From contig JAIPGG010000002.1 of the NCBI GenBank assembly GCA_021736255.1, positions 8,154 to 72,153 on the forward strand: a stretch of DNA of 64,000 nucleotides. Reading direction: 5' to 3'. Below are positions 22,008-48,507 of the stretch, piece by piece. The position numbers and the translations under genes were made by a program. The stretch comes from Spirochaetales bacterium (GTDB taxonomy: Bacteria > Spirochaetota > Spirochaetia > JAIPGG01). The notes below the pieces were generated by a model. That model was not told where the DNA came from. It searched no databases and saw only the letters and a program-made list of their open reading frames with translations. The first letter of the stretch is position 1; the number at the start of each line of letters is the position of its first letter.

Positions 22008-22064
22008 ATCGAGACTATTTTTAGGAAATACTGAAAGAAATGTCAACACCCTCCGGTGAAGTTC

Positions 22065-22094
22065 TTGACCGGAGCGAATAGAGGGGAGTATCAT
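22065..22094 (+). promoter_or_regulatory. sigma70-like promoter candidate TTGACC-18-TATCAT in front of fliG
   Basis: -35 at 22065-22070 and -10 at 22089-22094. It lies inside the longest ORF (22056 start), which argues for a downstream start codon. Confidence 0.4.
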
Positions 22095-22100
22095 TCCCCC

Positions 22101-33224: not shown

Positions 33225-33833
33225 TCAGACCATTGTCTGGACTATTGGGCCCGAATTCAGCATCAAACGAATCAGCAAGGTGACCAGTAGTCCTCCGAGG
33301 ATGCGATATACGATAAAGAGAATAATGCCGATCAAAAGCCGTGTTTTGTGGTTGATCGGCCGGTTGCCGATTATCCAGGAAGTGGATGAGTAGAGGATGG
33401 GTTCGGTAATTGTATCGATAGTCGACCAGAACGGGTTGATCGTCCCTTTTCCGCTTGCAAGGACAATGAGCCGGATAACAAACAGAATAATAAAGAAAAC
33501 CAGAAAGAAAGCTGCACCGGCCCAGACGGCTTGGAGGATGATCGCCCCGAGTATCCCGGGGGTGATCGTTCCGAAGCGGGAGAGATTCTCGAATATGTTC
33601 TGGAGAATAACCAGTACAATAAAACCGAGAATAGGTGAAAAGTCTATAGTCCCCATGCGGAGGAACTTGAATTTCCTGAAATAGTTCAGGTAAGGGTCGG
33701 TGATGTTGGCCAATACCTGGTAGGCTTTTCCGAAATCGATTCCCCTGAACCAGCTGAGGATAATTCGTATAATGAGGATCAAAAGGTAAAGTGATACAAC
33801 GGCGCTCAATACTCTCATGGTGGTCTGAAACAT
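33225..33833 (-). CDS. YggT-family integral membrane protein (duplicated YggT unit)
   Basis: YLLILIIRIILSWF and PYLNYFR motifs. Four to five TM helices. Confidence 0.75.
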   Translation of the reverse strand: MFQTTMRVLSAVVSLYLLILIIRIILSWFRGIDFGKAYQVLANITDPYLNYFRKFKFLRMGTIDFSPILGFIVLVILQNIFENLSRFGTITPGILGAIILQAVWAGAAFFLVFFIILFVIRLIVLASGKGTINPFWSTIDTITEPILYSSTSWIIGNRPINHKTRLLIGIILFIVYRILGGLLVTLLIRLMLNSGPIVQTMV

Positions 33834-33872
33834 AGTTTGCTCCTTACTTGTGGTACGTTGTGGAAGTGCTTG

Positions 33873-36800
33873 TCATTCTTGCCATACTTCCTGAACCAGG
33901 GTGTTCTGCCGGATTCCCGCGATTGTTGTCTTTTCATCGGAGATCGTAATGTGCTGTGAAGCACGGATGATCACGTCGGATCCATTTTTCGGAATGTGAA
34001 AATAGAGGGGAGAGGCTCCCTGGTGTTCGAGAACATAGTCGTGTAACGATTGAAGGGCTTCGTGGTCGGTGCTGTTTTTGAGCCGGATGTGGACCTCCCG
34101 GACTTTGAGCTTTTCGAGTTCTTCGGGTGCCTTGATCTCTTCTACCGACAATTGGTGTTCACCTCGCTTGTCGGATATCTGTCCGCTCAAACCGAGGATT
34201 CGGTCCGTTTCCAGCAGGTGCTGATATTGTTGATATACTCTCGGGAACACCACAAAGGGGATCGTTCCACGGTAATCCTCGATAGCCCCGGCGGCCATCA
34301 TGTCCCCTTTTTTTGTATACAGCTGTTTGTACTCTTTGATGAGGGCTACGGCTGTGTAGCGTTTATCCTTCATAGCCCGCTCCGGATAGCGGAGATCGAT
34401 GCTGGAGGCGTTTTTCCAGATCTCCTTGTACTGGTCCAGGGGGTGGCCGGACAGGAAAAATCCAAGGTTCTCTTTTTCGTACCGGAGCCGTTCGAGTTCG
34501 GACCATTCGGGTACCTGTTCTATCTCGATATCCGGTGCGACTTCCTGATCCATTTGCTCGAAGAGGGAAGACTGACCGTATTCCCGGCTCTCCTTGATGC
34601 TGCCGACGATATCGATCAGCTTATCGAGGTTGGCAAAAAGGGTTGCACGGTTGGAATCAAGATTGTCGAAGGTTCCCGTTTGGATGAGGGTTTCGGTTAC
34701 CTTCCGGTTGACAGTTTTCATATCGATCCGTTCGAGAAAATCGATAAAAGAGGTGAATCTTCCATTTTCGCTGCGTTCGGAGAGGATACCGTCTACTGCA
34801 GCAGAGCCGACATTCTTGATTCCCAGCAGCCCGTAGACGATCTTGCCCTCGGATACGGTAAAGTATTTTTCGGATATGTTGATATCCGGTGGGAGGATCT
34901 CGATACCGAGCTGCCTCGTCTCATCGAGATAAACGGCGAATTTCTTCGTATCGTTGATTTCGTTGGTCAGGTTGGCAGCCATGAACTCGACCGGGTAGTT
35001 TGCCTTGAGATAGGCGGTTTTATAGGCCAGGACCGAGTAGGCGGCGGCATGAGATTTGTTGAACCCGTACCCGGCAAAGGGGATGAGGAGGTCGAAAATG
35101 GATTCGGCCTGCTGCCGGGTATATCCCTTTTCCAGGGCGCCGTCCACAAAATCTTTCTTGAGCTTCGGCATGACTTCGGCTTTTTTCTTGCCCATGGCTC
35201 TTCGGAGAATGTCTGCTTGACCGAGGCTGTATCCGCCTACGATCTGGGCAATCTCCATGACCTGTTCCTGATAAACGATAACCCCGTAGGTTTCTTTCAA
35301 AACCGGCTCGAGCTCGGGCAGGGGATAGCGGATAGACTCTTTGCCGTTTTTTGCATTTACGAACTGGTCGATATTATCCATCGGACCGGGACGATACAGG
35401 GCGTTCAAGGCTATCAGGTCTTCGATGGAATTCGGTTTTGCCTGTTTCAGGATCTGCTGCATTCCGCTGCTTTCGAACTGAAATACGCACATGCTGTTTC
35501 CATCGCCGAGGAGGCGGAAGGTTGCTTCATCGTTCTCCTCGATGGTATCCAGGTCAATCTCGATACCCTGTTTCTTGATGAGCCGGACGGTATTTTCGAT
35601 GAGGGTTAGGGTCTTGAGGCCGAGAAAGTCCATCTTTACCAGTCCGCACTCCTCGAGGAGATCCATGGTGTACTGGGTGGAGACGGCCCCGGTTTTCGGG
35701 TCCCGGTAGAGGGGAACGTATTCGGTAAGTGGTTCTTTTCCGATTACGATTCCTGCGGCGTGGGTGGATGCATGGCGGTTGAGGCCTTCGAGCCGTCTGC
35801 TTTCATTAATCAGGGCCTCGTAGACACCGCCGCGATCGGCAACCTCCTGCAGCCTTGGTTCCTGTTGAAGGGCTTTTTCGAGGGTCATTTTCGGCCCCTC
35901 CGGGACGAGTTTGGCGGTGCTGTCTGATTCAGCGTAGGGTATGTCCAGCACCCGTGCTACATCGCGGATCACCGCTCTGGCCTTGAGCGTTCCGAAGGTA
36001 ATAATCTGGGCCACTCGGTCGCTGCCGTATTTTTTTGTTACATAGTCGATAACCTCCTGCCGGCGTTCGAAACAGAAGTCGATATCGAAATCAGGCATAG
36101 AAACCCGTTCGGGATTAAGAAAGCGTTCAAACAAGAGGTTGTACTTGAGGGGCTCGATGTCGGTGATCTTGAGTGCATAGGCGACAACCGAACCCGCGCC
36201 TGATCCCCGACCCGGTCCTACCGGGATGTTGTTCACCCTGGCAAAGTGAATAAAATCCCAGACGATCAGAAAGTAGCCGGTAAAACCCATCGAGATAATG
36301 ATGTTCAGTTCGTAGTCCGCCCTGTCTTTCACCTCATCGTAACGCTGGGGATACCGTTCTTTCAGGCCCTGATAGGTCAGATCCCGGAGATAGGCATCGG
36401 GATTCTCGTAGCCTTCGGGTATCCGGTAGAAGGGGAGGATGGGACCCGGCAGTTCGATTTCGAGATCGCAGGCAGCCGCTACCTTCTTGGTGTTGGTAAG
36501 TGTTTCGGGGAGGTCGGCAAAGATTTGCCGCATCTCGGATTCGGATTTCAGATAGAACCCGTCTCCCTTGAATTGCATGCGCTTGGCTTCGTGCTGTTTT
36601 TTGTTGGTTCCGATGCACAGCAGGATGTCCTGGGCATTCGCATCGCTTTTATCGACATAATGGACATCGTTGCTTGCCACGATCGGGATGCCCGTTTTTC
36701 TCGATAGCTGGACAATGCCTTTTTTGACGGTCTCCTGTTCGGGTATGCCGTGGTCCTGGATTTCCAGGTAGAAATTCTCCTCACCGAAGAGGTTCCGATA

Positions 36801-37286
36801 CCAGAAGGCCCGTTTTTCGGCTTCCTCGTTTCGTCCATTCAGAATATCCTGGGGAATGTCGCCGGCAAGACAGGAAGTCAAGCAGATCAGCCCTTCATGA
36901 TATTTCTCGAGCAGTTCATCGTCGATTCGCGGTTTATAGTAAAACCCTTCGAGAAAGGAGAGAGAGCTCAGGATCATAAGGTTGCGGTACCCTGTCCGGT
37001 TTTTTGCCAGCAGAACCAGGTGAGAAAGGCGTTTGTGCTTTTCCTCGGGGGTTTTGGTGTGACGGGAGCCGGGGGTTCGGTAAAATTCACAGCCGATAAT
37101 CGGTTTGATGTTCCGTTTCCGGCAGGCTTTGTAAAAGTGAAGGGCCCCGAACATATTCCCGTGGTCGGTCAGGGCCAGTTCTTCGAAACCGTATTCCGCC
37201 GCTCGGTCTACGAGCTTTTCCACTGCGGCGGCTCCGTCGAGAAGGGAATAATCCGAATGTACGTGAAGATGGACGAAATCAGCCAT
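33873..37286 (-). CDS. dnaE: DNA polymerase III alpha subunit
   Basis: PHP domain FVHLHVHSDYSLLDGA, MPDFDIDF, GLLGIKNVG and length 1137 aa. Confidence 0.95.
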   Translation of the reverse strand: MADFVHLHVHSDYSLLDGAAAVEKLVDRAAEYGFEELALTDHGNMFGALHFYKACRKRNIKPIIGCEFYRTPGSRHTKTPEEKHKRLSHLVLLAKNRTGYRNLMILSSLSFLEGFYYKPRIDDELLEKYHEGLICLTSCLAGDIPQDILNGRNEEAEKRAFWYRNLFGEENFYLEIQDHGIPEQETVKKGIVQLSRKTGIPIVASNDVHYVDKSDANAQDILLCIGTNKKQHEAKRMQFKGDGFYLKSESEMRQIFADLPETLTNTKKVAAACDLEIELPGPILPFYRIPEGYENPDAYLRDLTYQGLKERYPQRYDEVKDRADYELNIIISMGFTGYFLIVWDFIHFARVNNIPVGPGRGSGAGSVVAYALKITDIEPLKYNLLFERFLNPERVSMPDFDIDFCFERRQEVIDYVTKKYGSDRVAQIITFGTLKARAVIRDVARVLDIPYAESDSTAKLVPEGPKMTLEKALQQEPRLQEVADRGGVYEALINESRRLEGLNRHASTHAAGIVIGKEPLTEYVPLYRDPKTGAVSTQYTMDLLEECGLVKMDFLGLKTLTLIENTVRLIKKQGIEIDLDTIEENDEATFRLLGDGNSMCVFQFESSGMQQILKQAKPNSIEDLIALNALYRPGPMDNIDQFVNAKNGKESIRYPLPELEPVLKETYGVIVYQEQVMEIAQIVGGYSLGQADILRRAMGKKKAEVMPKLKKDFVDGALEKGYTRQQAESIFDLLIPFAGYGFNKSHAAAYSVLAYKTAYLKANYPVEFMAANLTNEINDTKKFAVYLDETRQLGIEILPPDINISEKYFTVSEGKIVYGLLGIKNVGSAAVDGILSERSENGRFTSFIDFLERIDMKTVNRKVTETLIQTGTFDNLDSNRATLFANLDKLIDIVGSIKESREYGQSSLFEQMDQEVAPDIEIEQVPEWSELERLRYEKENLGFFLSGHPLDQYKEIWKNASSIDLRYPERAMKDKRYTAVALIKEYKQLYTKKGDMMAAGAIEDYRGTIPFVVFPRVYQQYQHLLETDRILGLSGQISDKRGEHQLSVEEIKAPEELEKLKVREVHIRLKNSTDHEALQSLHDYVLEHQGASPLYFHIPKNGSDVIIRASQHITISDEKTTIAGIRQNTLVQEVWQE

Positions 37287-37306
37287 CCGCTCTTGTCCTC
37301 CTGGAA

Positions 37307-37335
37307 TTCATAGCATGTATCCCGCCTTGTGTCAG
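37307..37335 (-). promoter_or_regulatory. promoter candidate CTGACA-17-(TGc)TATGAA for dnaE
   Basis: On the minus strand, the -35 is at 37335-37330 and the -10 at 37312-37307, preceded by TGc (extended -10). It overlaps the stop codon of the upstream FAD-subunit gene. AGGAGG Shine-Dalgarno sequence follows. Confidence 0.4.
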
Positions 37336-38219
37336 TATCGGCCCGGAACAGGAATTGTTGCTTCACTACCGAGGTTGCTCAGAAAGTCCAGGGCTTTGAG
37401 AATGAGCATTCTCCGGTCGAGTTCTCTGGGGATCGGTCCTGCAGCCTGGAAAAACGAATCGAGCTCTTGGTATAGATACTCGGTTTCCCGCTGGGAAAGA
37501 GGTGGAACACGGCCGACCAGCTCCGCTTCCAGTTCACGGTGCCGCATGACCAACCGGCGAAAGGCGCTGAATACCAGCCGTGCTTCGGAAATTGTTCCCT
37601 TTTCCATCCGGGCTACTGCGGTTACGGAGAGATGAGTTTCCGGCATCCAGAAATTGTGTTCATGCTTCCAATAGAGTTCCTCGGTAAAACTCTCGACGGG
37701 TATGAGTATTCGCTGGATGAGTTCACCCGGTTTGAGCCTGAGGTTGTTCTCTGAATCGATCAGTCTGGGGATCGGAAGCCTGCGGCTTCCTTCCGGACCA
37801 ATCAGTTCGACTTGAGCTTCGAGGGCGAAGAGAACGGGGAAGCTGTCCATCCGATATTCCGGGTTGGATAGGTTCCCGCCGAGACCGGCAAGATTCCGGA
37901 TTGCAGGGGTGCCGATGGAGGTCAGACAACGGTACAGACAGACGGGGAGAACCCTCTTGGCCTGCTCGAGCAAAAGGGATAAGGGGGCGGCTGCTCCGAT
38001 TTCGAGAAAGCGTTCGGTTCGGTGAATCCTCGTCAATTCATCGATTCCCCCGATATTGATTACCTGTTCTCCGAGGACGGGAATTTTCTTTTGTTCACGG
38101 CCCAGCAGCCATGTGCCGCCGGCAAAGAGAACGGCCGACGGGTGCCGGCTGTAGAGTTGAATGAGCTCGGTCAAATCAGCAGGCGAGAAAAAGCTAACCA
38201 TTCGCTGTTCAGCTGCCAT
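37332..38219 (-). CDS. XDH/CODH-family FAD-binding subunit homologue (CoxM/XdhB-like)
   Basis: FAD_binding_5-like LFAGGTWLL and AIRNLAGLGGNL. Start taken at MAAEQRMVSFF (38219), overlapping the upstream gene by 11 nt. Confidence 0.8.
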   Translation of the reverse strand: MAAEQRMVSFFSPADLTELIQLYSRHPSAVLFAGGTWLLGREQKKIPVLGEQVINIGGIDELTRIHRTERFLEIGAAAPLSLLLEQAKRVLPVCLYRCLTSIGTPAIRNLAGLGGNLSNPEYRMDSFPVLFALEAQVELIGPEGSRRLPIPRLIDSENNLRLKPGELIQRILIPVESFTEELYWKHEHNFWMPETHLSVTAVARMEKGTISEARLVFSAFRRLVMRHRELEAELVGRVPPLSQRETEYLYQELDSFFQAAGPIPRELDRRMLILKALDFLSNLGSEATIPVPGRY

Positions 38220-38685
38220 TTCTCGACCTCCTGAAGTATGCTGCCAGATGTATCGCCCGGAATAGAGTTGACTCTCCTCCGCAGCGGGTTTCGATACTCC
38301 GGAAAATATTGCGGATTTCGCTCTGCTCGGGGTTTTCCTCACGCTGAATAAGGTCATGAACCAGGAGAATGAGAGCAGGTTTGACAGGTTCACAGAGTTT
38401 CACCCCTGCTTCCTCGAATCCGCCTTCGATATCCCGGTATTCATCCGTGTTCCGGAACCCCTCGAGCGTCATGATCTCTTTATTTCTGATATTTGCGGCC
38501 AGCACCAAACATGAGGGCACCGGCCGTCCCTGCAGAAGCACCATGCAGTTCCCGCAGCTTCCTCGATAACAATCTCCGGTGATGCTTGAAATACTGTAAC
38601 GGTCACGGAGAATATCTACCAGTCTTCTTTCGGGCTTCGAGTTGAGACGAACCTTTTTCCCGTTTAGAACAAAGTCGATTATCAA
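38209..38685 (-). CDS. XDH/CODH-family [2Fe-2S] small-subunit homologue (CoxS-like) with degenerate second cluster motif
   Basis: Plant-type motif C-x4-C-x2-C-x11-C is intact (GDCYRGSCGNCMVLLQGRPVPSCL). In the region aligning to QCGFCTPG...NLCRCTGY it reads KLCEPVKPA...ETRCGGES. Confidence 0.8.
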   Translation of the reverse strand: MIIDFVLNGKKVRLNSKPERRLVDILRDRYSISSITGDCYRGSCGNCMVLLQGRPVPSCLVLAANIRNKEIMTLEGFRNTDEYRDIEGGFEEAGVKLCEPVKPALILLVHDLIQREENPEQSEIRNIFRSIETRCGGESTLFRAIHLAAYFRRSRNGS

Positions 38686-40745
38686 CTGCTTTCCTCCAGC
38701 TCTTTGAGCCGTTCGCTCGTAATCGGGAGACTGTCAAAGTCGAGGCCGGTAGCTTGACTTACAGCGACGGCGAATGCCGGTGGAATTGTAGAATAGGGAA
38801 GCTGGGAAATTCCCTTGATGGTTGACCGGTTGCCGTCTTCGAGGAAATCGATATAAACAGGAGGAGTTGCGGCGGGCGGTAACAGGTGATAACGGTGCCA
38901 GTCTCCCTCGTCGGGCGCCTTTCCCCGGGAGAGAATCTCATGGTAGGACCAACCGAGAGCGGAGCGGATTCCCTCCTCCAGGCTGCTTACCAGTCGCCTG
39001 CGGTTGATGACCACCCCGCCGCTTATCATCAACCATATTCCGCGAATCGTTAATTCGAAACTTATAGAATCTACTTCCACTTCCACAACGGAAGCTCCCC
39101 ACGCGGATTGAGGAAAGGGATAGCCTTCGAAGCTTTCATGGTTCCACGCGTGTTTCGGCGGCAGCCGGTAGCTTCTTTGGATTTCAATAGGAAGGGCTTC
39201 CCGGAAACGCCGCTTCTTGATTGCATCGAAGCACTGCTTGAGTAGCCGCGATGTAACGGTGAGGTTTCGCGCTAGTATCGATGGACCGGTATCCGGAACC
39301 GTCGAGGTTGCCGGAGAGGTGAAATGGACTTGTTCGGGGGATATATCGAGGGTTCTTGCCGCCATTTCCTTCCAGTATGATTGAAGAGCTTCGGAAATGC
39401 TGGAGGTTGAAATGGAAAGATTACCTGCGGTATCCATGGATACTCGCACGGTCTTCGACAGCTTTACCTCCTTGCGTCCGATAAAGCCGTTTCCCTGATA
39501 GCCGGTAGAAAGCCCGATTCCCCGGCTCATATCGATTGTTTTAGAAAGAGAACTGCGACGCTTTCTGCGCATCTCATAGGCCGCATGTTTCCGCCGATAA
39601 TCGGAGCGGTCCACTACCGACTCCAGAGCCGGCAGGACAGCCTCGGCTTCGCGGTAGAAGCGGGGAACTTCCTCTTCGATATCAGGTTTGATGTGACGTT
39701 TTTTCCACTCGTAAGGGTCCTGTTCACTCATATAAGCGGCCCTTCCTCCATGCACCTCGGAAATGAAAAGACCCTGGCTTGTTCCCAGGCCTTCGAAGGC
39801 GTTCATGGGGGGTTTGTTGGTAGTAACAATACGGCCTGTGAGGTTCATAGCAGGGCAGTAATGCTGCCCAACGGCGCCGAGACATATTCGTTCGAGCATC
39901 TCCTCTTCGAAAAGAGGGAAGGCGCCTGCATCACAGCTGATATCAATTTCCCGTGCCGTAATATACCCTTCGGCCGAAAGATGGGTACGCAGTTGTGCTG
40001 AAACAGGTGCACGCTTGGAGGTATAGAGGAAGTCCTCCTGCCGGTTGTACCGGAGGAGAACCGGTTTTCCGGTTAACCATGCGGCCAGGGCGGCATGGGC
40101 GGCAACCAGAGAACTGCTCCAGACCTTCCCGTCCAGTACCGTTTGTTCATCCTTGATTTGGATAGAGACCTGTTCAGGGTTGATACCCAGAACCTCGGCC
40201 ACTGTGGTCTTGACGTGATAGGGCCAGCGGGAATAGGTGTGCACCTCGATCTCCCGGCCCTTTCGTAGAGCAAAAGCGCTGTGGGGTTCAGGATAGTAGT
40301 GTTCCTGCGGCGGTGTGGATATCCGTTCTTCGAGGACCTGCACCGCCTGCTGCTTCTGGAAATCCATATCTCCGTAAGAGATTCGGTAGTCGCTTTCCTT
40401 CGTAGCCGGTCCGGGTGTTGCGGCAAGAAAGCGGGGTTCTGCCGGAACCGCATCGATATGAATCCTCTCTGCGGCCGTGCTCAGCTCTTCTTCATCATTG
40501 CCGACCAAAAGCCCGAGAGGCATTCCCCGATAGGACAGGATGTCCTTGGCCAAAACCGGCATATGTGACTGAAAAACCGTGAGCCTGTTTTTGCCGGGAA
40601 TGTCAGCGGCGGTAATTAGCCTGTATCCAGTCGGCAAAGAACCGCTGTCAATGCTGCGCAGCCGCCCACGGGCTACCGGCGAACGAACCGTCACCGCAGT
40701 GAAGAGCTTTTTCTTGTATTGTTTGCGATAAGCAATTTCATCCAT
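38682..40745 (-). CDS. XDH/aldehyde-oxidase-family molybdopterin-subunit homologue, apparently degenerate active site
   Basis: N-terminal a/b-hammerhead pattern (TVRSPVARGRLRSID...ITAADIPGKN...YRGMPLGLLVGNDEEEL). Core GKPVLLRYNRQEDFLYTSKRAP...DAGAF. C-terminal GGVVINRRRLVSSLEEGI and KGISQLPYSTIPPAFAVAV. Confidence 0.8.
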   Translation of the reverse strand: MDEIAYRKQYKKKLFTAVTVRSPVARGRLRSIDSGSLPTGYRLITAADIPGKNRLTVFQSHMPVLAKDILSYRGMPLGLLVGNDEEELSTAAERIHIDAVPAEPRFLAATPGPATKESDYRISYGDMDFQKQQAVQVLEERISTPPQEHYYPEPHSAFALRKGREIEVHTYSRWPYHVKTTVAEVLGINPEQVSIQIKDEQTVLDGKVWSSSLVAAHAALAAWLTGKPVLLRYNRQEDFLYTSKRAPVSAQLRTHLSAEGYITAREIDISCDAGAFPLFEEEMLERICLGAVGQHYCPAMNLTGRIVTTNKPPMNAFEGLGTSQGLFISEVHGGRAAYMSEQDPYEWKKRHIKPDIEEEVPRFYREAEAVLPALESVVDRSDYRRKHAAYEMRRKRRSSLSKTIDMSRGIGLSTGYQGNGFIGRKEVKLSKTVRVSMDTAGNLSISTSSISEALQSYWKEMAARTLDISPEQVHFTSPATSTVPDTGPSILARNLTVTSRLLKQCFDAIKKRRFREALPIEIQRSYRLPPKHAWNHESFEGYPFPQSAWGASVVEVEVDSISFELTIRGIWLMISGGVVINRRRLVSSLEEGIRSALGWSYHEILSRGKAPDEGDWHRYHLLPPAATPPVYIDFLEDGNRSTIKGISQLPYSTIPPAFAVAVSQATGLDFDSLPITSERLKELEESS

Positions 40746-40770
40746 GGGTATCTATATCTTCCGTGACGTC

Positions 40771-41976
40771 TCAGCTCAGCCTGAAATGGGATTTACCAAT
40801 GTGTATTACTGTTTCAATTATTCGATCAATCTGCCGATCGGTCAACTCCGGATAGAGGGGAAGACTGATGGTTCGGCTGAAAGAATCAAGGGCATTCGGG
40901 AAATCCCCGGGTTTCAGGCCGTAGCGGTCACGATAATACGGCATGAGATGAAGGGGGATATAGTGTACCGAAGTTCCGATTCCGGCCTCTGAGAGTGCAC
41001 GGATGTATTCATCGCGAGTGATCGTCAATTGCTCCGGACGTATCCTGAGCAGAAACAGGTGCCATGCATGGCTCGAAGGAGCAGGGGGCATCTCAAAAAA
41101 ACTGTACTCACCGAGTCTGCTCAGATATATCTTGGCTATCCGCTTCCTCTGTTGAGCAAGTTCCCAGGCTCTTTTCAGTTGTACTCGTCCCATTGCGGAG
41201 GCTGTGTCCGGCATGTTGTATTTGTAGCCGGCCTCGACGACATAATATTCCCAATCCGCCTCGTTGCCTTCATAACGGAACCACGCATCCCGGTCGATCC
41301 CGTGCAGACGCATAATTTGAATCCGTTCGGCGGTTTTCTTTGAATTGGTAACAACCATTCCCCCTTCCCCGGTGGTGAGCGGTTTCGTAGCATAAAAGGA
41401 AAACACCCCTGCATCCCCGACGGTTCCGGCAAAGGGGGCTGCTTTTCTGCTTTCCTCGGAAGTTTCTCCTTCTTCGATCCGGAGAGGAAAGGCATGGGCG
41501 GCATCCTCTATCAGCGGAATATGCCGGCGCTCCGCCAGGGATTTGAGGTGAGTTGCCGCGCATGGTGCCCCGCCGAGGTGCACCGGGAGCAGGCAGGCCG
41601 TCTTTTCCTTTTCCAACAGGGCTTCCACCCCGGAGGGGTCGATCTGGAAATCGTCCGGGTTGATGTCTACAAACCGGGGGTGGGCCCCCAGATGTCTGAT
41701 TGCCTCGGCGGTTGCAGTGAAGGTATAGGGAGTGGTAATAACCTGATCCCCTTCCCCGACGCCGAGGGCTTCAAGCGCCAGGTGGAGTCCGGCGGTTGCG
41801 GAATTTACAGCCAATGCATTCGGGCACCGGATGAACTCTGCAAATTCCTCTTCGAACCGGAGGGTCTCCCGGCCCGTTGTGAGCCATCTGCTGCGAAGCA
41901 CTCGGTCGACCGCTCGTCGTTCCGCCCTCCCGATCGACGGACGGTGAAAGGGAATAGGATCAGTACGGCGGTTCAT
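40771..41976 (-). CDS. DegT/DnrJ/EryC1/StrS-family sugar aminotransferase (PglE/WecE-like)
   Basis: PFHRPSIGRAERRAV, NSATAGLHLAL and PLP-lysine segment FSFYATKPLTTGEGGMV. Start at MNRRTDPIPF (41976), overlapping the upstream gene by 17 nt. Confidence 0.88.
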   Translation of the reverse strand: MNRRTDPIPFHRPSIGRAERRAVDRVLRSRWLTTGRETLRFEEEFAEFIRCPNALAVNSATAGLHLALEALGVGEGDQVITTPYTFTATAEAIRHLGAHPRFVDINPDDFQIDPSGVEALLEKEKTACLLPVHLGGAPCAATHLKSLAERRHIPLIEDAAHAFPLRIEEGETSEESRKAAPFAGTVGDAGVFSFYATKPLTTGEGGMVVTNSKKTAERIQIMRLHGIDRDAWFRYEGNEADWEYYVVEAGYKYNMPDTASAMGRVQLKRAWELAQQRKRIAKIYLSRLGEYSFFEMPPAPSSHAWHLFLLRIRPEQLTITRDEYIRALSEAGIGTSVHYIPLHLMPYYRDRYGLKPGDFPNALDSFSRTISLPLYPELTDRQIDRIIETVIHIGKSHFRLS

Positions 41977-43438
41977 CACGAGGAACCTCCAGGGAAGGAA
42001 TATGTTTTTGAAGTATGCTGCGCAGAAGGCGGCGGTTCCGATACGAGTCACTCCGATCTGAATCAAGGAAACAGATTGGAGCGAGCTTTTCCAGCAGTTC
42101 CGGTAGATTCAGAACATTCGGGCGGGACCTTTCGACCCGGAGAATTTTTTCGAAGCTTGTTTCCACACTGTTTTCATGAGAAGAAACGAGATGCTCGGAG
42201 ACCTTCTCTCCGGGCCGCATCCCGATCCAGGAGATGTCGATGTCCCGGTACGGTTCGAAACCGTAAAAGCGTATCATTTGCTCTGCCAGATCTCTGATCC
42301 GTACCGGTTCTCCCATATCCAGGAGGTAGAGGTTTCCTCCGCTTCCCAAGCCTGCGGTCTTTAGTACCAGCGAGGAGGCTTCCGGAATGGTCATAAAGAA
42401 ACGTGATGTTTCCGGGTGAGTAAGGGTAACCGGGCCTCCCTTGAGGATTTGTTTCCGGAAGAGGGGAAGAATGCTTCCCCGGGAGCCGAGCACGTTTCCG
42501 AAGCGCACCACCAGATAATCGCGGACATCCGCCGCCCGCCTTAGTACGAGTTCCTCGGCAATGAGTTTCGAAGCCCCGTAAACTGAAAGCGGATTGACGG
42601 CCTTGTCGGTGGAAATCAGAGTGAGCCGGGGAACCCCGCTTTCTTCTGCGGCATCCAGCAGGTTGAGTGTGCCGAAAACATTGTTTTTTATCCCGGCTAT
42701 GGGATTGGCCTCCATAAGCGGCACATGCTTGTAGGCTGCGCTGTGAAATATAACGTCCGCCTTCAATCGAGAGAAGATGAATCGGACAAAATCACGATCC
42801 TGGAGTTCGCCGATGACTGGAACGATGGTGGCTTTCTCTCCGACTCCTTCCTCCTGGAGTATTCTGAGTTCTCTGTCGATGTCGTATATGCTGTTTTCCC
42901 CGTGGCCGAGAAGATAGAGGCGCTCCGCCCCGCCGGAGAGCAATTGTCTGGCGAGTTCGCTGCCGATGCTCCCGCCTGCTCCGGTTATCAGAACACGTTT
43001 ACCCCGGAGATACGAGAGGCTCTCCTTGAGGTGTATGGCAACCGGTCCGCGGGAGAGGAGGTCTTCGGGGTTTATTTCCCGTGCCTGAATCAGGTGGGCT
43101 TCCCCGTCGACGATCTGGGCAATTCCCGGCAGGATGCGGATTCGCGAGAATTCGGCCTGCTTGAGTATGGAGTAGAGCTTGCTCAATTGGCGCCTGTCGG
43201 CGCTCGGAATTGCAATAATTGCTTCGTCGGTCGGGGTGGTGTCAACCAGGTTCATGACTGCATCTATCGGTCCGAGAACAGGGATCCCCTCGATACGGGT
43301 ACCGATTTTTTCGGAATCATCGTCGAGAAAAGCAACCACACTCCCGAGAATACCCTTTTTGTGGATTTCCGAGGCAATGGACCTTCCGGCAAAACCGGCG
43401 CCGATAATGTAGATCCGTGTTTCTCTTATACTCGGCAT
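41960..43438 (-). CDS. CapD/PglF/WbpM-family nucleotide-sugar 4,6-dehydratase, soluble form (no N-terminal TM segment)
   Basis: N-terminal Rossmann IYIIGAGFAGRSIA, SDR core VLITGAGGSIGSELARQL and catalytic AAYKHVPLME. Confidence 0.88.
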   Translation of the reverse strand: MPSIRETRIYIIGAGFAGRSIASEIHKKGILGSVVAFLDDDSEKIGTRIEGIPVLGPIDAVMNLVDTTPTDEAIIAIPSADRRQLSKLYSILKQAEFSRIRILPGIAQIVDGEAHLIQAREINPEDLLSRGPVAIHLKESLSYLRGKRVLITGAGGSIGSELARQLLSGGAERLYLLGHGENSIYDIDRELRILQEEGVGEKATIVPVIGELQDRDFVRFIFSRLKADVIFHSAAYKHVPLMEANPIAGIKNNVFGTLNLLDAAEESGVPRLTLISTDKAVNPLSVYGASKLIAEELVLRRAADVRDYLVVRFGNVLGSRGSILPLFRKQILKGGPVTLTHPETSRFFMTIPEASSLVLKTAGLGSGGNLYLLDMGEPVRIRDLAEQMIRFYGFEPYRDIDISWIGMRPGEKVSEHLVSSHENSVETSFEKILRVERSRPNVLNLPELLEKLAPICFLDSDRSDSYRNRRLLRSILQKHIPSLEVPRDEPPY

Positions 43439-43444
43439 ATGCTC

Positions 43445-43996
43445 TCAGCGATGATTAGATTCCGGGAGCTCTTCCCGGTCGTTTTTCATGGCTTCCATGT
43501 CTTCGAAGCCGAAATCTATCAAAAACGCGTCGTCGTAAAGGCTCAGTTTGACCTTGGCACGCTTTTTCCTTTTATCCACCTTGACTATTCTGCCCTCTAG
43601 GCCCTTGAGTGGCCCGTCGAGAACCTGTATGCGCTGGTTTTCATCGAAGACAACCTGAGATTTCTCCGCTATTTCCCCGTACGATTGAAAGTGAAGCACC
43701 AGTCGTTTATCATCACCTTCGAGTGGTACAATGTCGTAGTTGCTTTTGAGAAAGCGATAAAAATCCGGCATTCGCTTTAAGAGCCAGTAGATGTCTGCGC
43801 TCACCTCTTCGGTTTCCAGAAAAAGGTAGCCGGGAAAGATCGGTTTCAGGGTTTCCTTGGGTTTTCCCTGTTTCCATATAGTAAGACTCCGCCGGGGCCA
43901 AAAGAATTTAAGACGAAGCTCAGGATTGTTATAGGCTATCATCTTGAGAAATTTGTCTTCATTCCGTGATTTAACCTGAACAACATAGAAGTTCAT
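43445..43996 (-). CDS. specialised NusG-family paralogue (NGN + KOW), putative operon-specific antiterminator
   Basis: NGN pattern FYVVQVKSRNEDK...IFPGYLFLETE. KOW pattern RIQVLDGPLKGLEGRIVKVDKRKKRAKVKLSLY. No adjacent secE/rplK context, and it lies 6 nt upstream of the capD-like gene. Confidence 0.8.
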   Translation of the reverse strand: MNFYVVQVKSRNEDKFLKMIAYNNPELRLKFFWPRRSLTIWKQGKPKETLKPIFPGYLFLETEEVSADIYWLLKRMPDFYRFLKSNYDIVPLEGDDKRLVLHFQSYGEIAEKSQVVFDENQRIQVLDGPLKGLEGRIVKVDKRKKRAKVKLSLYDDAFLIDFGFEDMEAMKNDREELPESNHR

Positions 43997-44044
43997 GGTC
44001 GGTTCTTTTCAGATTTCATCCTGACTCCGTCTGATTGTATGCCA

Positions 44045-44073
44045 AAAATAGCATGGAAGTGCGGGAGCTTCAA
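44045..44073 (-). promoter_or_regulatory. promoter candidate TTGAAG-17-(TGc)TATTTT for the NusG-paralogue operon
   Basis: On the minus strand, the -35 is at 44073-44068 and the -10 at 44050-44045, with a TGc extended -10. About 45-nt leader before ATG 43996. Confidence 0.45.
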
Positions 44074-44156
44074 GCAGGATGGGAAGGAAGGCCCCGGGAG
44101 TAATACTCAGGAAATTTTTCAAGATTCCGATATTTTAGAATAAGGAGTACTCTGCT

Positions 44157-44666
44157 ATGCAACGGAACATTATTTTTCTCTTGGTTTTACTCTTCCTTGC
44201 ATCAAGCTTGGCCGCCGAAACGGTTATGGTGAGTCTTCATACCGGTGAACAGCCTTCCCGGACACCGACTTCATATCTAATCGCGCTCGAAGAGGGGATC
44301 ATGGAGGTGTTCTTCCAGGAAGGGCATATTGTCTTTAATTCGGTACCTGATTCAGGTTCGATGCCGAAAGGAGAGGTGGAAGGCGAACTCTACAGCGTTG
44401 CAGGTGGGGGCGGAGCAGGTTTTTTGATAACCGCAGAGCTACAAGTGAAAACGCCTTCTCCGGAAGAAAGAGAAAAATCCGATGAAGAAAACCGACCCCT
44501 GCCGGTTTCCGCTCGATTTCAGCTGGCTCGGGTGTTACCCCGTCGCTTAATCGAAACGGGAATAATCGAGTTCGATCGACAGGAAAAGTCGGAACAATTA
44601 ACTCCCCGGGATATGTGTTTTCAATTGGGAAACGAGATAGCTTATCGAGCTATTCAGAAATGGTGA
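44157..44666 (+). CDS. hypothetical secreted protein
   Basis: Signal peptide IIFLLVLLFLASSLAAE. No recognised domain. Confidence 0.6.
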   Translation: MQRNIIFLLVLLFLASSLAAETVMVSLHTGEQPSRTPTSYLIALEEGIMEVFFQEGHIVFNSVPDSGSMPKGEVEGELYSVAGGGGAGFLITAELQVKTPSPEEREKSDEENRPLPVSARFQLARVLPRRLIETGIIEFDRQEKSEQLTPRDMCFQLGNEIAYRAIQKW

Positions 44667-44700
44667 AAGAGGTTTTTTTACGATACAAGGAGTAGGAACG

Positions 44701-46356
44701 ATGAAGGGCAAGAGAGTATTTCTCCTGTTGATACTGGCAGGTATGCTTACTTCGGGAGTGACGGCTGCCTCGCTTTGGGAGGGGAATGCTGCAATGAGCA
44801 GATACGGGGAGTTCCCTATGAGCGGACTCTTCGGGGCGTCGAACTCATTCCCGAGGAATACCACGGTGAAAGTCGAAAATCTTGATACCGGCAAGAGTGT
44901 AGAGGTAGTCATTACCAAACGGCTCGATGATCCGGGATTATTCATGCTGCTTTCCCGTCAGGCTGCAGAAAAACTCAGCATACCCCCGAATGATGTCGTC
45001 CGGGTCAGTGTTTCCCTCGCCGAAGGTGAAGCGGTCGAGGAATACACAGGACTTCCCGATGATCAGCCCTATCATCCCGATCCGGACATCAATCCGGCGG
45101 CCGGCGTTGAGTCGACAACCCCGGAGGCTGTTGAATCAGCAGAAGAGATTGCGGAAGCCGCGCAGCCGGAAGCTGCACAGCCGGAAGCTGCACAGCCGGA
45201 AGCCGCACAGCCGGAAGCTGCACAGCCGGAAGCTGCACAGCCGGAAGCTGCACAGCCGGAAGCCGCGCAGCCGGAAACGCCGCAGCCGGCGGAAAAAGAA
45301 ACCGCCGAGCCGGCTCTGCAGGACGAGCCTGTCGTGTCTGCGGAACCTGCTGAGCCGGAAGAACCTGCTGAGCCGGCGGAGGACAGTGTTCTGCCGGAAG
45401 AGCCGATGGAAGAGCCGACCGACCTAACGGAGGTCACCCCGGCACCGGTCGTAATACCGATTATTCCTGAAGAAGAAAAAGAAACAGAACCCGAAGAGGA
45501 ACCCGATCTCGAGGCCGAACTCGATGCACTCGCAAACCGGGAGCCCTCGAAAGAGGTGGAACGGGAATCCTTTGCCGATCTGGACCCGGAGCTTTACGAA
45601 CGGCCTGCTTTAACCGAAAGGCCGGAAGAACTCGAGGAGCTGCCCCTGACTGTTGCCGAACCGGCCGAAAAAGAAGAAATAGTACAATCCGAAACCCCCG
45701 AGCCCTTGCCCGAAGGGCCCACGGTAACCGAATCCGTGAAAGAGCCGGAGGCTACCGAAGAGGTTTTTCCCGCAGAGCAGCCGGAAGTGACCGAGCAGCC
45801 GGAAGCGGCAGAGCAGCCGGAAGCGGCAGAGCAGCCGGAAGCGGCGGATAAACCGGAGGCAACGGACATGCCCGAGCCTGACGAAGAGGGGGAAGTCGAA
45901 CTCACACTTGAACCTGCAGGACCGAAACCTCCGGAACCCTCTGCGGCAACAGCTCCTGCTGAACTTGCCGAGGCGAAAGAAGAAGGAGTGGCGGAAGGAG
46001 AAGGCGAGGCAGCAGAGGCGGCCGAACCGGCCGAGCCGGCCGAACCGGCAACGGAACGCCCAGAACCGCAGCCCGAAATCACAAAGGCCCGGGACGAAGG
46101 CAAGCTGCTGGTCGATACCCTCGAATCCGGTTCTTATTATCTGCAGCTCGGAGTGTATTCCTCGAGGAACTCGGCTGTACGGGTTGCCGGGGGCCATACG
46201 GACACCTATCCTGTAGCGGTTTTGCCGGTAAGCGGCGAAAAGGGAACCAGGTATAAGGTCATGGTAGGTCCGCTGAACAATGATGAAAGCGGAACACTGT
46301 TGTACTGGTTTCGGTCACGGGGATATCCTGATGCCTTCCTGAGAAAGGGTAATTAG
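44701..46356 (+). CDS. RlpA-like DPBB domain / acidic Pro-Glu-Ala repeat linker / C-terminal SPOR domain protein
   Basis: Signal peptide. DPBB-like NTTVKVENLDTGKSVEVVITKRLDDPGLFMLLSRQAAEKL. About 330-aa PEA-rich linker. SPOR-like YYLQLGVYSSRNSA...RYKVMVGPLNNDESGTLLYWFRSRGYPDAFLRK. Confidence 0.8.
   Translation: MKGKRVFLLLILAGMLTSGVTAASLWEGNAAMSRYGEFPMSGLFGASNSFPRNTTVKVENLDTGKSVEVVITKRLDDPGLFMLLSRQAAEKLSIPPNDVVRVSVSLAEGEAVEEYTGLPDDQPYHPDPDINPAAGVESTTPEAVESAEEIAEAAQPEAAQPEAAQPEAAQPEAAQPEAAQPEAAQPEAAQPETPQPAEKETAEPALQDEPVVSAEPAEPEEPAEPAEDSVLPEEPMEEPTDLTEVTPAPVVIPIIPEEEKETEPEEEPDLEAELDALANREPSKEVERESFADLDPELYERPALTERPEELEELPLTVAEPAEKEEIVQSETPEPLPEGPTVTESVKEPEATEEVFPAEQPEVTEQPEAAEQPEAAEQPEAADKPEATDMPEPDEEGEVELTLEPAGPKPPEPSAATAPAELAEAKEEGVAEGEGEAAEAAEPAEPAEPATERPEPQPEITKARDEGKLLVDTLESGSYYLQLGVYSSRNSAVRVAGGHTDTYPVAVLPVSGEKGTRYKVMVGPLNNDESGTLLYWFRSRGYPDAFLRKGN
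45160..45279 (+). repeat. in-frame 15-bp tandem repeat x8 (gcNcagccggaagcN; peptide AQPEA)
   Basis: Eight head-to-tail units counted at 45160, 45175, 45190, 45205, 45220, 45235, 45250 and 45265. Only third-position differences, and the last unit is diverged. Confidence 0.9.
45775..45864 (+). repeat. in-frame 18-bp tandem repeat x4-5 (gagcagccggaagcggca; peptide EQPEAA)
   Basis: Units at 45775, 45793, 45811 and 45829, plus a degenerate fifth at 45847. It shares the cagccggaagc core with the 15-bp array. Confidence 0.85.
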
Positions 46357-46377: not shown

Positions 46378-48507
46378 ATGAAGAATTCCCAGGGAGGCGC
46401 TGATGCTGCCGATCGCAACAGCAATCGGCACCCGAAAGAAGAGATGGACCGCCTTGCCGGTCTTCTGCGCCGGTACCAACACGAGTACTACGTGCTCAGT
46501 GCCCCCTCGGTATCCGACGAAGAGTATGACCGTTTGTTCGAGCGGCTGAAATATCTGGAATCAGAATATCCCGAATATGCCCGGCCGGACTCTCCCTCTC
46601 AACGGGTGGGTTCCGATTTGATGCATGAACTGCCGGAGGTGGAACACAGCATTCCTGTGCTCAGCTTGGATAAGGCCTACACCGACGAAGGGGTTTTGAG
46701 TTGGATGGAGAAGACCGCCGGAGCGGCAGGTGAACCGGTTACCTTTCTTGCCGAGGAGAAGATAGACGGTGTCTCGATCGTGCTCTATTATGAAGACGGG
46801 GTGCTGCAGCGAGCTGTGACCAGGGGCAACGGGTATGTGGGAAACGATGTTACCCCGAATGTAAAGACTATCGGAGCCGTGCCGCTTTCCCTGCACAAGG
46901 TGTCGGATCTCACTGTTCGCGGCGAGATATATCTGCCGAAAGACAGGTTTCAGGATATAAACAGCCGCATGCCCGAGCCCTTTGCCAACCCGAGAAATCT
47001 GGCATCCGGAACACTGCGCCGAGTTCGCAGTGTGGAGACCGCACGAGTACCGCTTACCATGTTCGCCTATGAGGGAATTTTCCCCGACCAGGAAGAAACC
47101 CATGACCGGGTTCTGACCAGGCTCGAGGAACTCGGATTCAGGGTAAATCCCCGTTTTCGACTGTTCAGAATTGATCCTGCCGACCCGAGCGCTTCCGGCA
47201 GTGACTGGGAAGAGTTCAAAGCCTTTCTCAAGCAGGAGAATGAAGAGCGGGATAGCCTTACCTATGAAATCGACGGACTCGTAATCAAGGTAAACGAATT
47301 GGCCCCCCGCGAGCGGCTTGGTTATACGAGCCATCATCCCAGATGGGCTGTTGCCTACAAATTCGAATCGCCCCAGGGGATAACCCGGGTTCGTGATATC
47401 GAGGTGCAAATCGGTCGAACCGGCAGGGCAACACCGGTAGCCCGGGTCGAACCGGTCTCCATAGGAGGCTCGACCATTACGAATGTAACGCTCCACAACC
47501 AGGAATATATATCAGCACTCGAGCTCTCCATCGGCGACCAGGTCGCTGTTTCTCGAAGGGGCGATGTGATACCGGCGGTGGAAAGGGTTATCGAAAAGGA
47601 TGCCGGCAGTCCGCCGGTCTGGAAAATGCCCGAAAACTGCCCTTCCTGCGGCCGAAAGCTGCAGCAAAAGGGTGCTCATCATTTCTGCGTCAATCCGGAT
47701 TGTCCGGCGATCCGATTCGGCAGACTCCGTTTTTTTGCGGCCAAGGGGCAGATGGATATAGATAATCTCGGTCCGGAGACGGTGAATACACTTTTCGAAA
47801 TGGGTCTGGTAGAGGACATTGCCGATTTTTATCGGGCTGATTATTCACAGCTTTTAGGTCAGGAAGGATTCGGGCCGAAGAAGGTAGAGCTGATAAAGCG
47901 CGGGGTGGAAAAGAGTAAGCAGCGCTCCTTTCGTACGGTATTGACCGCTCTTGGTATTTCGGATTTGGGTGAAAATGTTGCGGACTTGCTTATCTCAGGC
48001 GGTTTCTCATCGATGGAAGGGCTTCTCGAGGCGGCCGACCGGGACGACCGGGATGCTCTCTCGGCGATAGCGGGGATCGGGCCGAAGATGGCCGAAGGGA
48101 TTCTCTCTTCTTTGCGGGACCGGCGGCTGCGGGAACAGATCTCCGCCCTCGCTGAGGCCGGCATTTCCATGTCTGCGGAGGAGGACAGGCGCAAGGCTGC
48201 CGGAGAGGCTTCCGGTGGAGAGGAATCCGGACAGGATCTCCCCCGGATTTTCGAAGGTCAGACATGGTGTGTCACCGGCAGTTTCGAGTCCTTCACTCCG
48301 AGGGAGGAGGCGATGGAAGAGGTGAAAAAGCGCGGGGGCAGGGTAGTCTCTTCGGTCACCGGTAAAACCACCCATCTCCTCGCCGGCAGCGGAGCGGGTT
48401 CGAAGCTGGAAAAGGCGCGCAGTCTGGGGGTTTCGGTTGTCGACGAGGCGGAATTTCTCCGGCTGCTCGGCCGAGGCGAATCAGAGAACAAAGCGGAACG
48501 GCAGTGA
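46378..48507 (+). CDS. ligA: NAD-dependent DNA ligase
   Basis: Adenylation motif EEKIDGVSI, Zn-finger CPSCGRKLQQKGAHHFCVNPDC, HhH region and C-terminal BRCT (WCVTGSFESFTREEA). Confidence 0.95.
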   Translation: MKNSQGGADAADRNSNRHPKEEMDRLAGLLRRYQHEYYVLSAPSVSDEEYDRLFERLKYLESEYPEYARPDSPSQRVGSDLMHELPEVEHSIPVLSLDKAYTDEGVLSWMEKTAGAAGEPVTFLAEEKIDGVSIVLYYEDGVLQRAVTRGNGYVGNDVTPNVKTIGAVPLSLHKVSDLTVRGEIYLPKDRFQDINSRMPEPFANPRNLASGTLRRVRSVETARVPLTMFAYEGIFPDQEETHDRVLTRLEELGFRVNPRFRLFRIDPADPSASGSDWEEFKAFLKQENEERDSLTYEIDGLVIKVNELAPRERLGYTSHHPRWAVAYKFESPQGITRVRDIEVQIGRTGRATPVARVEPVSIGGSTITNVTLHNQEYISALELSIGDQVAVSRRGDVIPAVERVIEKDAGSPPVWKMPENCPSCGRKLQQKGAHHFCVNPDCPAIRFGRLRFFAAKGQMDIDNLGPETVNTLFEMGLVEDIADFYRADYSQLLGQEGFGPKKVELIKRGVEKSKQRSFRTVLTALGISDLGENVADLLISGGFSSMEGLLEAADRDDRDALSAIAGIGPKMAEGILSSLRDRRLREQISALAEAGISMSAEEDRRKAAGEASGGEESGQDLPRIFEGQTWCVTGSFESFTPREEAMEEVKKRGGRVVSSVTGKTTHLLAGSGAGSKLEKARSLGVSVVDEAEFLRLLGRGESENKAERQ

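Follow-up and report, generated by a model that had tools for sequence, protein, structure and literature searches.

In the genome of a Spirochaetales bacterium, a homologue of the large subunit of the xanthine dehydrogenase (XDH) family was identified which has kept the fold and lost the signature for binding of the molybdenum cofactor (Moco). The gene, here designated L, is located at positions 38682..40745 on the minus strand (-) of the window, which means the whole analyzed stretch of 64,000 nucleotides of contig JAIPGG010000002.1, and codes for a polypeptide of 687 amino acids. It is followed by the genes S and M for a [2Fe-2S] small subunit and a flavin adenine dinucleotide (FAD)-binding medium subunit, and the three genes are present in the order LoaP-CapD-DegT-L-S-M on one strand, together with genes for a NusG paralogue (LoaP) and two predicted enzymes of amino-sugar synthesis. 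Judged from the sequences of its relatives, the trio is an unusually degenerate member of a Moco-less branch of the XDH/carbon monoxide dehydrogenase (CODH) family that has not been described before. The explanation preferred here, to which a probability of roughly 0.6 is given, is that L serves as a pseudo-enzyme subunit without Moco in a flavo-iron-sulfur complex which would be tied to amino-sugar synthesis.

Fold and cofactor site of the trio

The open reading frame (ORF) of L lies inside a segment of 11,080 nucleotides that is 100% identical to a separate Logan assembly (run SRR12088347). Searches against Pfam identified both Moco-binding domains in L, MoCoBD_1 (PF02738) with an E value of 1.7e-43 and MoCoBD_2 (PF20256) with 1e-23, and the a/b hammerhead domain (PF01315) with 30.5 bits, slightly below its cut-off of 31.3 bits. 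An AlphaFold2 model calculated with 40 clade sequences as input reached a predicted local distance difference test (pLDDT) score of 88.1 and a predicted template-modeling (pTM) score of 0.89. When this model was compared with solved structures by Foldseek, TMq values of 0.85-0.88 were obtained for aldehyde oxidoreductase (AOR, 1sij), bovine xanthine oxidase (XO, 3b9j_C) and Rhodobacter capsulatus XDH (1jro_B), at about 20% identity. The arrangement of the family, a hammerhead followed by two Moco-binding domains, was thus found by Pfam and Foldseek, and the family membership proposed in a preliminary description of this DNA is confirmed.

The assignment to a known enzyme of this family was a different matter. 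Twelve NCBIfam models matched L, all of them for the XDH family, and every one remained far under its curated cut-off; the best, TIGR02965, scored 165 bits with a cut-off of 849.5. The cut-offs for the equivalogs XdhB, PucD, selenium-dependent XDH, PaoC, 4-hydroxybenzoyl-CoA reductase and CODH were not reached, and the sole match among the CODH models was NF040766 with 33 bits and a cut-off of 950.

The residues of the cofactor site were identified by a phmmer search against solved structures, which aligned residues 9-512 of L with bovine and human XDH (E about 1e-33), by a MAFFT alignment of L with eight canonical sequences, and by a second phmmer search with the C-terminal 174 amino acids of L. 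The first search pairs QIKDEQTVLDGKVWSSSL of L with RVKRMGGGFGGKETRSTL of XDH, by which the glycine loop is lost and Glu802 is replaced by Val, and its register is anchored by GKPVLLRYNRQEDFLYTSKRAP of L, which stands opposite a 22-residue segment of XDH. Here, MGGGFGGKE of XDH corresponds to DEQTVLDGKV of L, and phmmer and MAFFT place QTVLDGKVW (residues 201-209; 40119..40145, (-)) in the same columns as the Moco glycine loop GGGFGGKE(D/E). Inside this replaced loop lie residues 201-204, the sole segment of the model with a pLDDT below 50. The usual form of the clade at the old glycine loop is G-x-H-L-D-G-K-(L/I)-W.

Further replacements were identified along the polypeptide. In PPMNAFEGLGTSQG (residues 312-325; 39771..39812, (-)), Glu318 is the equivalent of Arg912 and Leu320 that of Phe914, phmmer pairing NAFEGLGTSQ of L with TAFRGFGGPQ of XDH. 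In RRLVSSLEEGIRSALGW (residues 583-599; 38949..38999, (-)), MAFFT places SSLEEGI under the canonical GQIEGGV, with Ser588 at the position of Gln1194. The segment Met1038-Gly-Gln1040 is replaced in the same alignment by a gap and a variable stretch. The catalytic Glu, E1261 in the bovine enzyme and E869 in that of Desulfovibrio gigas, is Gln648 in GISQLP (residues 645-650; 38796..38813, (-)), and the preceding Gly is Ser; in the C-terminal phmmer search, KGISQLP was aligned with GVGE869LP of D. gigas AOR and with KGVGEP of nicotinate dehydrogenase (NDH). Ser492 is Ala in the window, within an otherwise invariant GPxxxSR loop which we take to be the cofactor phosphate loop of the bovine structure. 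The equivalent of Gln767 is kept in PPQEHYYPEP (residues 145-154; 40284..40313, (-); phmmer and MAFFT), as is that of Arg880 in SKRAP. In sum, the glycine-rich Moco loop GGGFG(G/N)K with Glu802, the pterin-contacting Arg912, Gln1040 (MGQ) and Gln1194 (GQxEGG), and the catalytic Glu are all missing from the L subunit of the window.

That these losses only reflect a shifted alignment is so improbable that it can practically be dismissed. No point in support of such an artefact was found, and the shifted alignment was rejected because three independent alignments concur, namely phmmer to chains of the PDB, MAFFT with the canonical sequences, and the C-terminal phmmer search to AOR and NDH; in addition, the register is fixed by the flanking motifs PVxxxxxRxEDxxxxxKRxP, YPS, PP.GAF.G.G and KG..LP. 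The preliminary description had read DEQTVLDGKV at the glycine loop, KGISQLP with Gln for Glu and Ser for Gly at the catalytic site, and SLEEGI at the Q-ieG-G motif from a hand alignment. This alignment proved to be in register, since neither the glycine loop nor the Glu was restored by the profile-based and multiple alignments, and its reading that L has no canonical Mo-pterin site was strengthened by the additional losses of Arg912, Met1038-Gly-Gln1040, Ser492 and, on the small subunit, of the Gln112 equivalent and two Cys. A canonical Mo-pterin site in L is considered very unlikely. Among the close orthologues, which form an uncharacterized family, no demonstrated Mo enzyme was found.

The small subunit S (38209..38685, (-)), identified by Pfam, NCBIfam and comparison with solved structures, consists of 158 amino acids and is predicted to start with a TTG codon placed on the stop codon of L (AGTTGA), with GGAGGA as ribosome-binding site (RBS). 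The TTG at 38685 gives the full-length protein, which aligns with solved small subunits from residue 3. On the Logan contig, which is identical, automated annotation let S start from an internal ATG with 111 amino acids, so that the N-terminal ferredoxin domain was missed. This N-terminal domain holds the FAD-proximal ferredoxin-type cluster, for which all four Cys are present by alignment (residues 39-59; 38509..38571, (-)). The second cluster of this subunit is the one beside the Mo cofactor in the XDH family and normally carries electrons between the Mo site and FAD. In S, its canonical sequence Q-C-G-Y-C...C-R-C reads L-C-E-P-V...T-R-C: CEPV in place of C-G-(Y/F)-C (residues 98-101; 38383..38394, (-)) lacks one Cys of the Moco-proximal cluster and is preceded by Leu at the position of Gln112, and TRC in place of CRC (residues 133-135; 38281..38289, (-)) lacks a second ligand. 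The S subunit of the window is therefore without the full set of eight Cys for two [2Fe-2S] clusters and without the pterin-contacting Gln.

The medium subunit M (37332..38219, (-); Pfam, NCBIfam), with 295 amino acids, an ATG at 38219 and AGGAGG as RBS, keeps the motifs AGGT and GLGGN of the FAD subunits of this family. S overlaps L by 4 nucleotides and M overlaps S by 11 nucleotides, and from these junctions the three genes are predicted to be translationally coupled.

Spirochaete relatives and the order of losses

A search of 5.8 billion proteins with L returned an identical protein from a Spirochaetales metagenome-assembled genome (MAG) and, as the next matches, about 44 proteins with 32-40% identity, of which the named ones were all from Spirochaetota or Treponema MAGs. 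After these relatives, a sharp fall to canonical enzymes with 26-30% identity was observed. Apart from the identical protein, no relative closer than 40% identity, as would be needed for a ratio of nonsynonymous to synonymous substitutions (dN/dS), was present among the 5.8 billion proteins. When genomes, one for each species, were scanned for motifs, 287 were found to contain a relative. The best 80 of these were all or nearly all Spirochaetota (Treponema, Treponemataceae, Breznakiellaceae, Rectinemataceae, Spirochaetaceae), among them the complete genome of Breznakiella homolactica; because two clade motifs were used to find these 80 species loci, motif conservation is inflated in this set. 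An unbiased set was obtained when 1.84 billion cluster representatives were searched with the clade profile and without a word index; the best 150 all scored at least 522 bits, and L of the window scored 851.6 bits. At 50% identity the clade comprises more than 150 clusters. In a tree, it is monophyletic with respect to the canonical sequences, its stem measures 0.52 substitutions per site, and L of the window falls inside it.

Residues were counted in 130 full-length representatives of the profile search. The canonical glycine loop was present in 3 of them, Glu802 likewise in 3, Gln1194 in 7 and Arg912 in 10, and the Met-Gly-Gln segment was hypervariable across the clade. The equivalent of Gln112 was never Gln in 76 S subunits. 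Other parts of the site are kept in a larger share: an acidic residue stands at the position of the catalytic Glu in 89/130 representatives (77/80 species loci), Gln767 was found in 82/130 and Arg880 in 81/130. The full set of eight Cys was found in 74 of the 76 S subunits, the exceptions being the window and the locus L081, and the FAD motifs of M are conserved across the clade. In addition, 28 clade-specific, near-invariant positions were identified in L, for example in D-G-K-(L/I/V)-W, DYxRK(W/H)AxYE and RFRxxLPI, 24 of which are kept in the window. These counts indicate that the loss of the pterin contacts is clade-wide and affects both L and S, and that it is not a private decay of the window gene. 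In the literature, no functional paper was found on TP0079-0081, on coxL in Treponema or on the LoaP-CapD-DegT-L-S-M operon.

The nearest canonical relatives are P0233, P0239 and P0252, which have the full Moco signature (3/130 representatives) and reach at least 522 bits with the clade profile. In the locus of P0233 (L086:1-16058), the L-S-M trio is located amid catabolic genes and genes for XdhC, MoCF_biosynth and MOSC, surroundings typical of a functional Mo hydroxylase; by its gene content, the locus may be an island for the anaerobic degradation of purines/pyrimidines. Also encoded in this cluster are a PALP enzyme, an M20 peptidase, three amidohydrolases, a DHO_dh-like protein with Fe-S, and a second (fused) XDH-family enzyme. 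When the XdhC, MoCF and MOSC proteins of this locus were used in a tblastn search, no match was obtained in the window or in 88 other loci (about 1.2 Mb).

Rooting of the tree on P0233/P0239/P0252 placed P0213 as the first branch of the clade. P0213 carries the clade motifs DFQRKHAAYE and LRDILPIEARR. Its L subunit keeps GGGLGGK, Arg912, MGQG, Gln1194 and the catalytic Glu, only Glu802 being gone, and its small subunit keeps Q-C-G-L-C and CRCTGY; P0213 probably binds Moco. The locus (L087:1241-4523, a TARA marine scaffold) has the order L-S-M-DnaE-YggT-RecG, and CapD and DegT are not directly upstream of L. The signature of P0213 together with its position in the clade shows a stepwise loss inside one fixed locus, in a series which leads from canonical enzymes over the transitional P0213 to Moco-less proteins and finally to Moco-less proteins without the proximal cluster (the window and L081).

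By gene order and annotation, the same operon is present in Treponema pallidum. In the RNA-seq study PMC8525777, whose S2 Table covers all genes of strain Nichols, TPANIC_0077 (capD, 84263-85879), TPANIC_0078 (DegT family, 85884-87122), TPANIC_0079 ('coxL', 87050-89272), TPANIC_0080 ('coxS', 89269-89736) and TPANIC_0081 ('coxM', 89743-90591) are listed as contiguous genes, and all five are transcribed both in culture and in rabbits (PMC8525777). Their order is that of the operon in the 80 spirochaete loci. Among the Nichols entries, none starts with molybd, moa, moe, mob or mog (PMC8525777). In an older re-annotation, TPASS_0079 and TPASS_0081 were designated XDH-like hypothetical proteins (PMC4403809); the 'cox' names in T. 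pallidum are a naming by similarity only.

From these relatives, the possibility can be judged that L still binds a Mo or W pterin in a non-canonical manner and remains a hydroxylase or reductase. It is regarded as highly improbable. The intact fold, the kept Gln767 and Arg880, the partly kept loop that corresponds to the phosphate loop, and the basal P0213 as a probable Moco protein would be in line with it. However, the side-chain contacts to the pterin are replaced on two polypeptides (Gln112 on S, and Arg912, Gln1040 and Gln1194 on L), as are the glycine loop and, in the window, the catalytic Glu, and the Met-Gly-Gln segment is hypervariable in the clade. Moreover, unlike in the canonical relative, XdhC and Moco genes are not nearby, none of these and no purine-catabolic genes being found within the 64-kb window, and T. 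pallidum has the operon and no annotated Moco pathway.

Within the clade, the window genome appears as an extreme case, in which the catalytic Glu and the proximal cluster are additionally lost, the latter being C-V-T-C in the S subunit of the window versus C-C-C-C in 74/76 S subunits. Among the columns conserved to at least 90% in the clade, the window keeps 86% in L, 79% in S and 77% in M, versus a clade median of 97%. By the same measure, LoaP of the window keeps 91%, CapD 94% and DegT 97%; the values of these three proteins are normal, and the extra divergence is specific to the trio. Such a pattern would also be expected from relaxed selection, by which the trio of the window would be heading to a pseudogene and its substitutions would be without functional meaning: the trio keeps fewer conserved columns than any or nearly any other member, with its upstream neighbours normal, and it has lost a catalytic residue and ligands of a cluster. 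This course is nevertheless quite unlikely, since the ORFs of 687, 158 and 295 codons are intact, S and M have clear RBSs and overlapping junctions, the AlphaFold2 model is confident, most of the clade-specific positions are still present, and the branch is of ordinary length, the root-to-tip distance of L being 0.66 versus a median of 0.65.

A loss at the same cluster was observed in L081 (Spirochaetales MAG RS_13_41). Its S subunit (6439-7059) has lost all four proximal Cys (P-V-W-P), and its large subunit (4562-6574) has a scrambled loop, LSPSWKKLW, and Lys at the position of Gln767. A grouping of the window and L081 as one cluster-losing sublineage was not supported by the neighbor-joining tree or by nearest-neighbour distances.

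The amino-sugar operon and the putative role of the trio

Upstream of L and separated from it by a gap of 25 nucleotides, a gene was identified for a DegT/PseC-like aminotransferase of 401 amino acids dependent on pyridoxal phosphate (PLP), in which the catalytic Lys (SFYATKP) is kept (40771..41976, (-)). It is preceded by a gene for a CapD/PglF-like nucleotide-sugar 4,6-dehydratase (Polysacc_synt_2) of 492 amino acids (41960..43438, (-)) and, as the first gene of the operon, that for a LoaP-type NusG paralogue (43445..43996, (-)), which reached 149.9 bits with NCBIfam NF033641 versus a cut-off of 125. The gene for DnaE, located directly downstream of the trio on the same strand (33873..37286, (-)), is a syntenic neighbour outside the system.

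Neighbours were counted in the 80 non-redundant species loci, with denominators that vary by neighbour. S directly follows L in 74/74 loci and M directly follows S in 69/69, while DegT is found directly before L in 64/70, a CapD-like Polysacc_synt_2 dehydratase before DegT in 56/64, and the NusG paralogue before CapD in 53/61. Overlap of start and stop codons is frequent at the operon junctions of the relatives. The order LigA, SPOR protein, LoaP ... M, DnaE, YggT, RecG recurs in distant relatives, which assigns the operon to the core chromosome. A scan of positions 33500-44800 for promoters and terminators gave no signal over shuffled controls.

The catalytic motifs of CapD (NAD, YxxxK) and DegT are kept in 58-66 of 60-66 sequences, and the PLP-binding Lys of DegT is present in 66/66, its family score being best as PseC/ArnB-like and not as RfbH-like. 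Since the catalytic motifs are kept in essentially all species, CapD and DegT look active, and their product is presumably a UDP-4-amino-4,6-dideoxy-hexose. LoaP is known in Spirochaetota beside operons for polysaccharides or secondary metabolites (PMC12691694). In four Treponema MAGs from termite gut (L028, L038, L079 and L083), the L-S-M trio was identified with no LoaP, CapD or DegT upstream, which shows that the link to the sugar genes is frequent and not absolute; in L028 and L038, an SMC-like gene is located upstream of the trio.

According to the preferred explanation, the L-S-M heterotrimer would descend from a molybdenum hydroxylase of the XDH/CODH type. L would neither bind Moco nor hydroxylate, and would persist as a non-catalytic subunit of a flavin/[2Fe-2S] complex, which would serve the making or the use of the UDP-4-amino-4,6-dideoxy-hexose from CapD and DegT. 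L may hold these two enzymes or their product, and FAD and the remaining distal cluster would supply whatever redox step is left. For the L subunit of the window a non-catalytic state is most likely, because the wire from the old active site to FAD is cut.

Several points weigh against this explanation. Most sampled members keep both [2Fe-2S] sites, and about two thirds keep Glu1261, Gln767 and Arg880, which fits a redox-active site in the large subunit better than a pure scaffold. A fairly conserved new motif, (H)-L-D-G-K-(L/I)-W, stands at the old glycine loop and could form an active site of its own. CapD and DegT are linked to the trio by synteny only, and DegT does not adjoin the trio in 6/70 loci. 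The trio of T. pallidum is counted to the Moco-less clade with a signature state inferred from gene order and annotation only. Finally, the way in which the 80 species loci were found bears on every motif count taken from them.

In the main rival explanation, the subunit has been neo-functionalized. The Moco pocket would have been rebuilt as an active site from the His/Asp/Lys/Trp motif and the retained Glu, Gln and Arg, and may hold another metal or a nucleotide-sugar where the dinucleotide cofactor sat; the substrate would be the product of CapD and DegT, with electrons passing via two [2Fe-2S] clusters to FAD. The retention of eight Cys in nearly all S subunits and of the FAD motifs is consistent with this, as is the tight coupling to the DegT gene. 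In the species set, the new motif is conserved with Asp in 77/80, Lys in 77/80 and Trp in 80/80, and the G-P-x-x-x-S-R loop with Gly in 80/80, Ser in 80/80 and Arg in 79/80. However, in the unbiased set the residues of the proposed site are kept in just 58-68% (Asp205 in 75/130, Trp209 in 88/130, besides the Glu and Gln767 counted above), and His203 is found in 31/130 only. In the window, where the trio was nevertheless retained, the His, the Glu and the proximal cluster are all absent, and L081 is without all four proximal Cys. A rebuilt active site is on this balance a rather unlikely alternative to the non-catalytic subunit.

A wider proposal, which we hold to be unlikely, would be that spirochaetes including T. 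pallidum depend on a Mo-free XDH/CODH trio as a dedicated flavo-iron-sulfur component of amino-sugar metabolism, for envelope or flagellin glycans, with the pocket of L re-used for a nucleotide-sugar or as a new active site. If true, this would be a new enzyme type on the scaffold of a Mo enzyme and a possible treponeme-specific target.

In Treponema-type loci (L003:11447-16111, L002:11709-14464, L056 and about 20 others), four extra genes were identified 3' of the trio, coding for a small helix-turn-helix protein, a 3-dehydroquinate-synthase-like protein, a protein of about 510 amino acids with a signal peptide, and a UDP-glucose dehydrogenase. The protein of about 510 amino acids has no Pfam match and is possibly an outer-membrane barrel. 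This four-gene extension is absent from the window, and the four genes were rejected as part of the core operon, because they are lineage-specific with about 24/80 loci.

Divergent from loaP, the window encodes a protein of 551 amino acids (44701-46356(+)) with a Pro/Glu/Ala-rich region containing tandem repeats, namely a 15-nucleotide unit present 8.3 times at 45152-45276 (AAQPE) and units of 18/36 nucleotides at 45772-45857. Its homologues in relatives have a SPOR domain, and together with an ORF of 169 amino acids (44157-44666) it is a conserved neighbour of the operon. Other genes of the window have housekeeping functions and code for tRNA synthetases, a ClpB-like protein, his gene products, FliG, RecG, DnaE and LigA. 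The end of LigA is overlapped by a gene for a TylF-like O-methyltransferase (48504-49319(+)), and an SfsA + DUF123 fusion protein is encoded at 49734-50939(-). The FliG ORF (22056-23351(+)), when read from its first possible start, has about 100 amino acids more N-terminal sequence than is covered by Pfam FliG domains. For the ORFs at 5008-5715(-) with 235 amino acids and 12193-12993(+) with 266 amino acids, no Pfam match at E<=1e-5 was obtained.

Comparison with known systems

Genes of the XDH/CODH family are taken to indicate molybdenum use. In T. pallidum and in MAGs, the trio genes go under the names coxLSM or xanthine dehydrogenase, and 'Mo utilisation', 'CO oxidation' or 'purine catabolism' inferred from them in spirochaetes would be a wrong annotation. 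The series from canonical to cluster-less proteins may serve as a well-resolved example of a redox enzyme turning into a pseudo-enzyme or gaining a new job. The trio is located in an amino-sugar operon, and the syphilis agent, with its minimal genome, has kept the trio and transcribes it; this points to an unrecognized component of treponemal glycan biology.

With XDH/XO (bovine 1fo4, R. capsulatus 1jro, XdhABC/PucCDE), L shares the hammerhead, MoCoBD_1 and MoCoBD_2 domains (TMq 0.87, about 20% identity), the equivalents of Gln767 and Arg880, and the three-component layout with 2Fe-2S and FAD partners. It differs in the replacement of the glycine loop, Glu802, Arg912, Phe914, Met1038-Gln1040, Gln1194 and Glu1261, and its S partner differs in the absence of the Gln112 equivalent and of two proximal Cys. 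The context is also different, being amino-sugar synthesis without XdhC instead of purine catabolism. The top Foldseek match of L was D. gigas AOR (MOP, 1sij; E 1.4e-52, TMq 0.85), which among the matches listed is the only solved-structure chain aligned over the whole of L including the segment of the catalytic Glu. However, Glu869 of AOR is Gln in L, and AOR contains molybdopterin cytosine dinucleotide and has no FAD subunit. The trio and its subunit sizes resemble those of the aerobic CODH CoxLSM, but L of the window passes no CODH family model. In contrast to the window, the Moco signature is full in the P0233/P0239/P0252 group and nearly full in P0213.

For the combination of a DegT-family enzyme with a flavin/[2Fe-2S] donor, an analogy might be drawn to the E1/E3 (AscC/AscD) system for the 3-deoxygenation in the formation of 3,6-dideoxyhexoses. 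E1, however, has His in place of the PLP-binding Lys and a cluster of its own, and E3 belongs to another fold family. A role of the trio as the reductase of an E1/E3-type DegT dehydrase was rejected as a direct model on account of the PLP-binding Lys, which no DegT sequence of the set has lost, and of the PseC/ArnB-like score.

An analogy for the preferred explanation may be seen in NuoG/Nqo3 of complex I, in which the fold of a molybdopterin enzyme was kept in a flavin/iron-sulfur complex after loss of the cofactor. By analogy, the L-S-M trio would likewise hold a cofactor-less Mo-enzyme fold in a flavin/Fe-S complex. NuoG/Nqo3 is derived from enzymes of the DMSO reductase/formate dehydrogenase type, is unrelated in sequence to L, and, unlike the spirochaete trio, has a known function.

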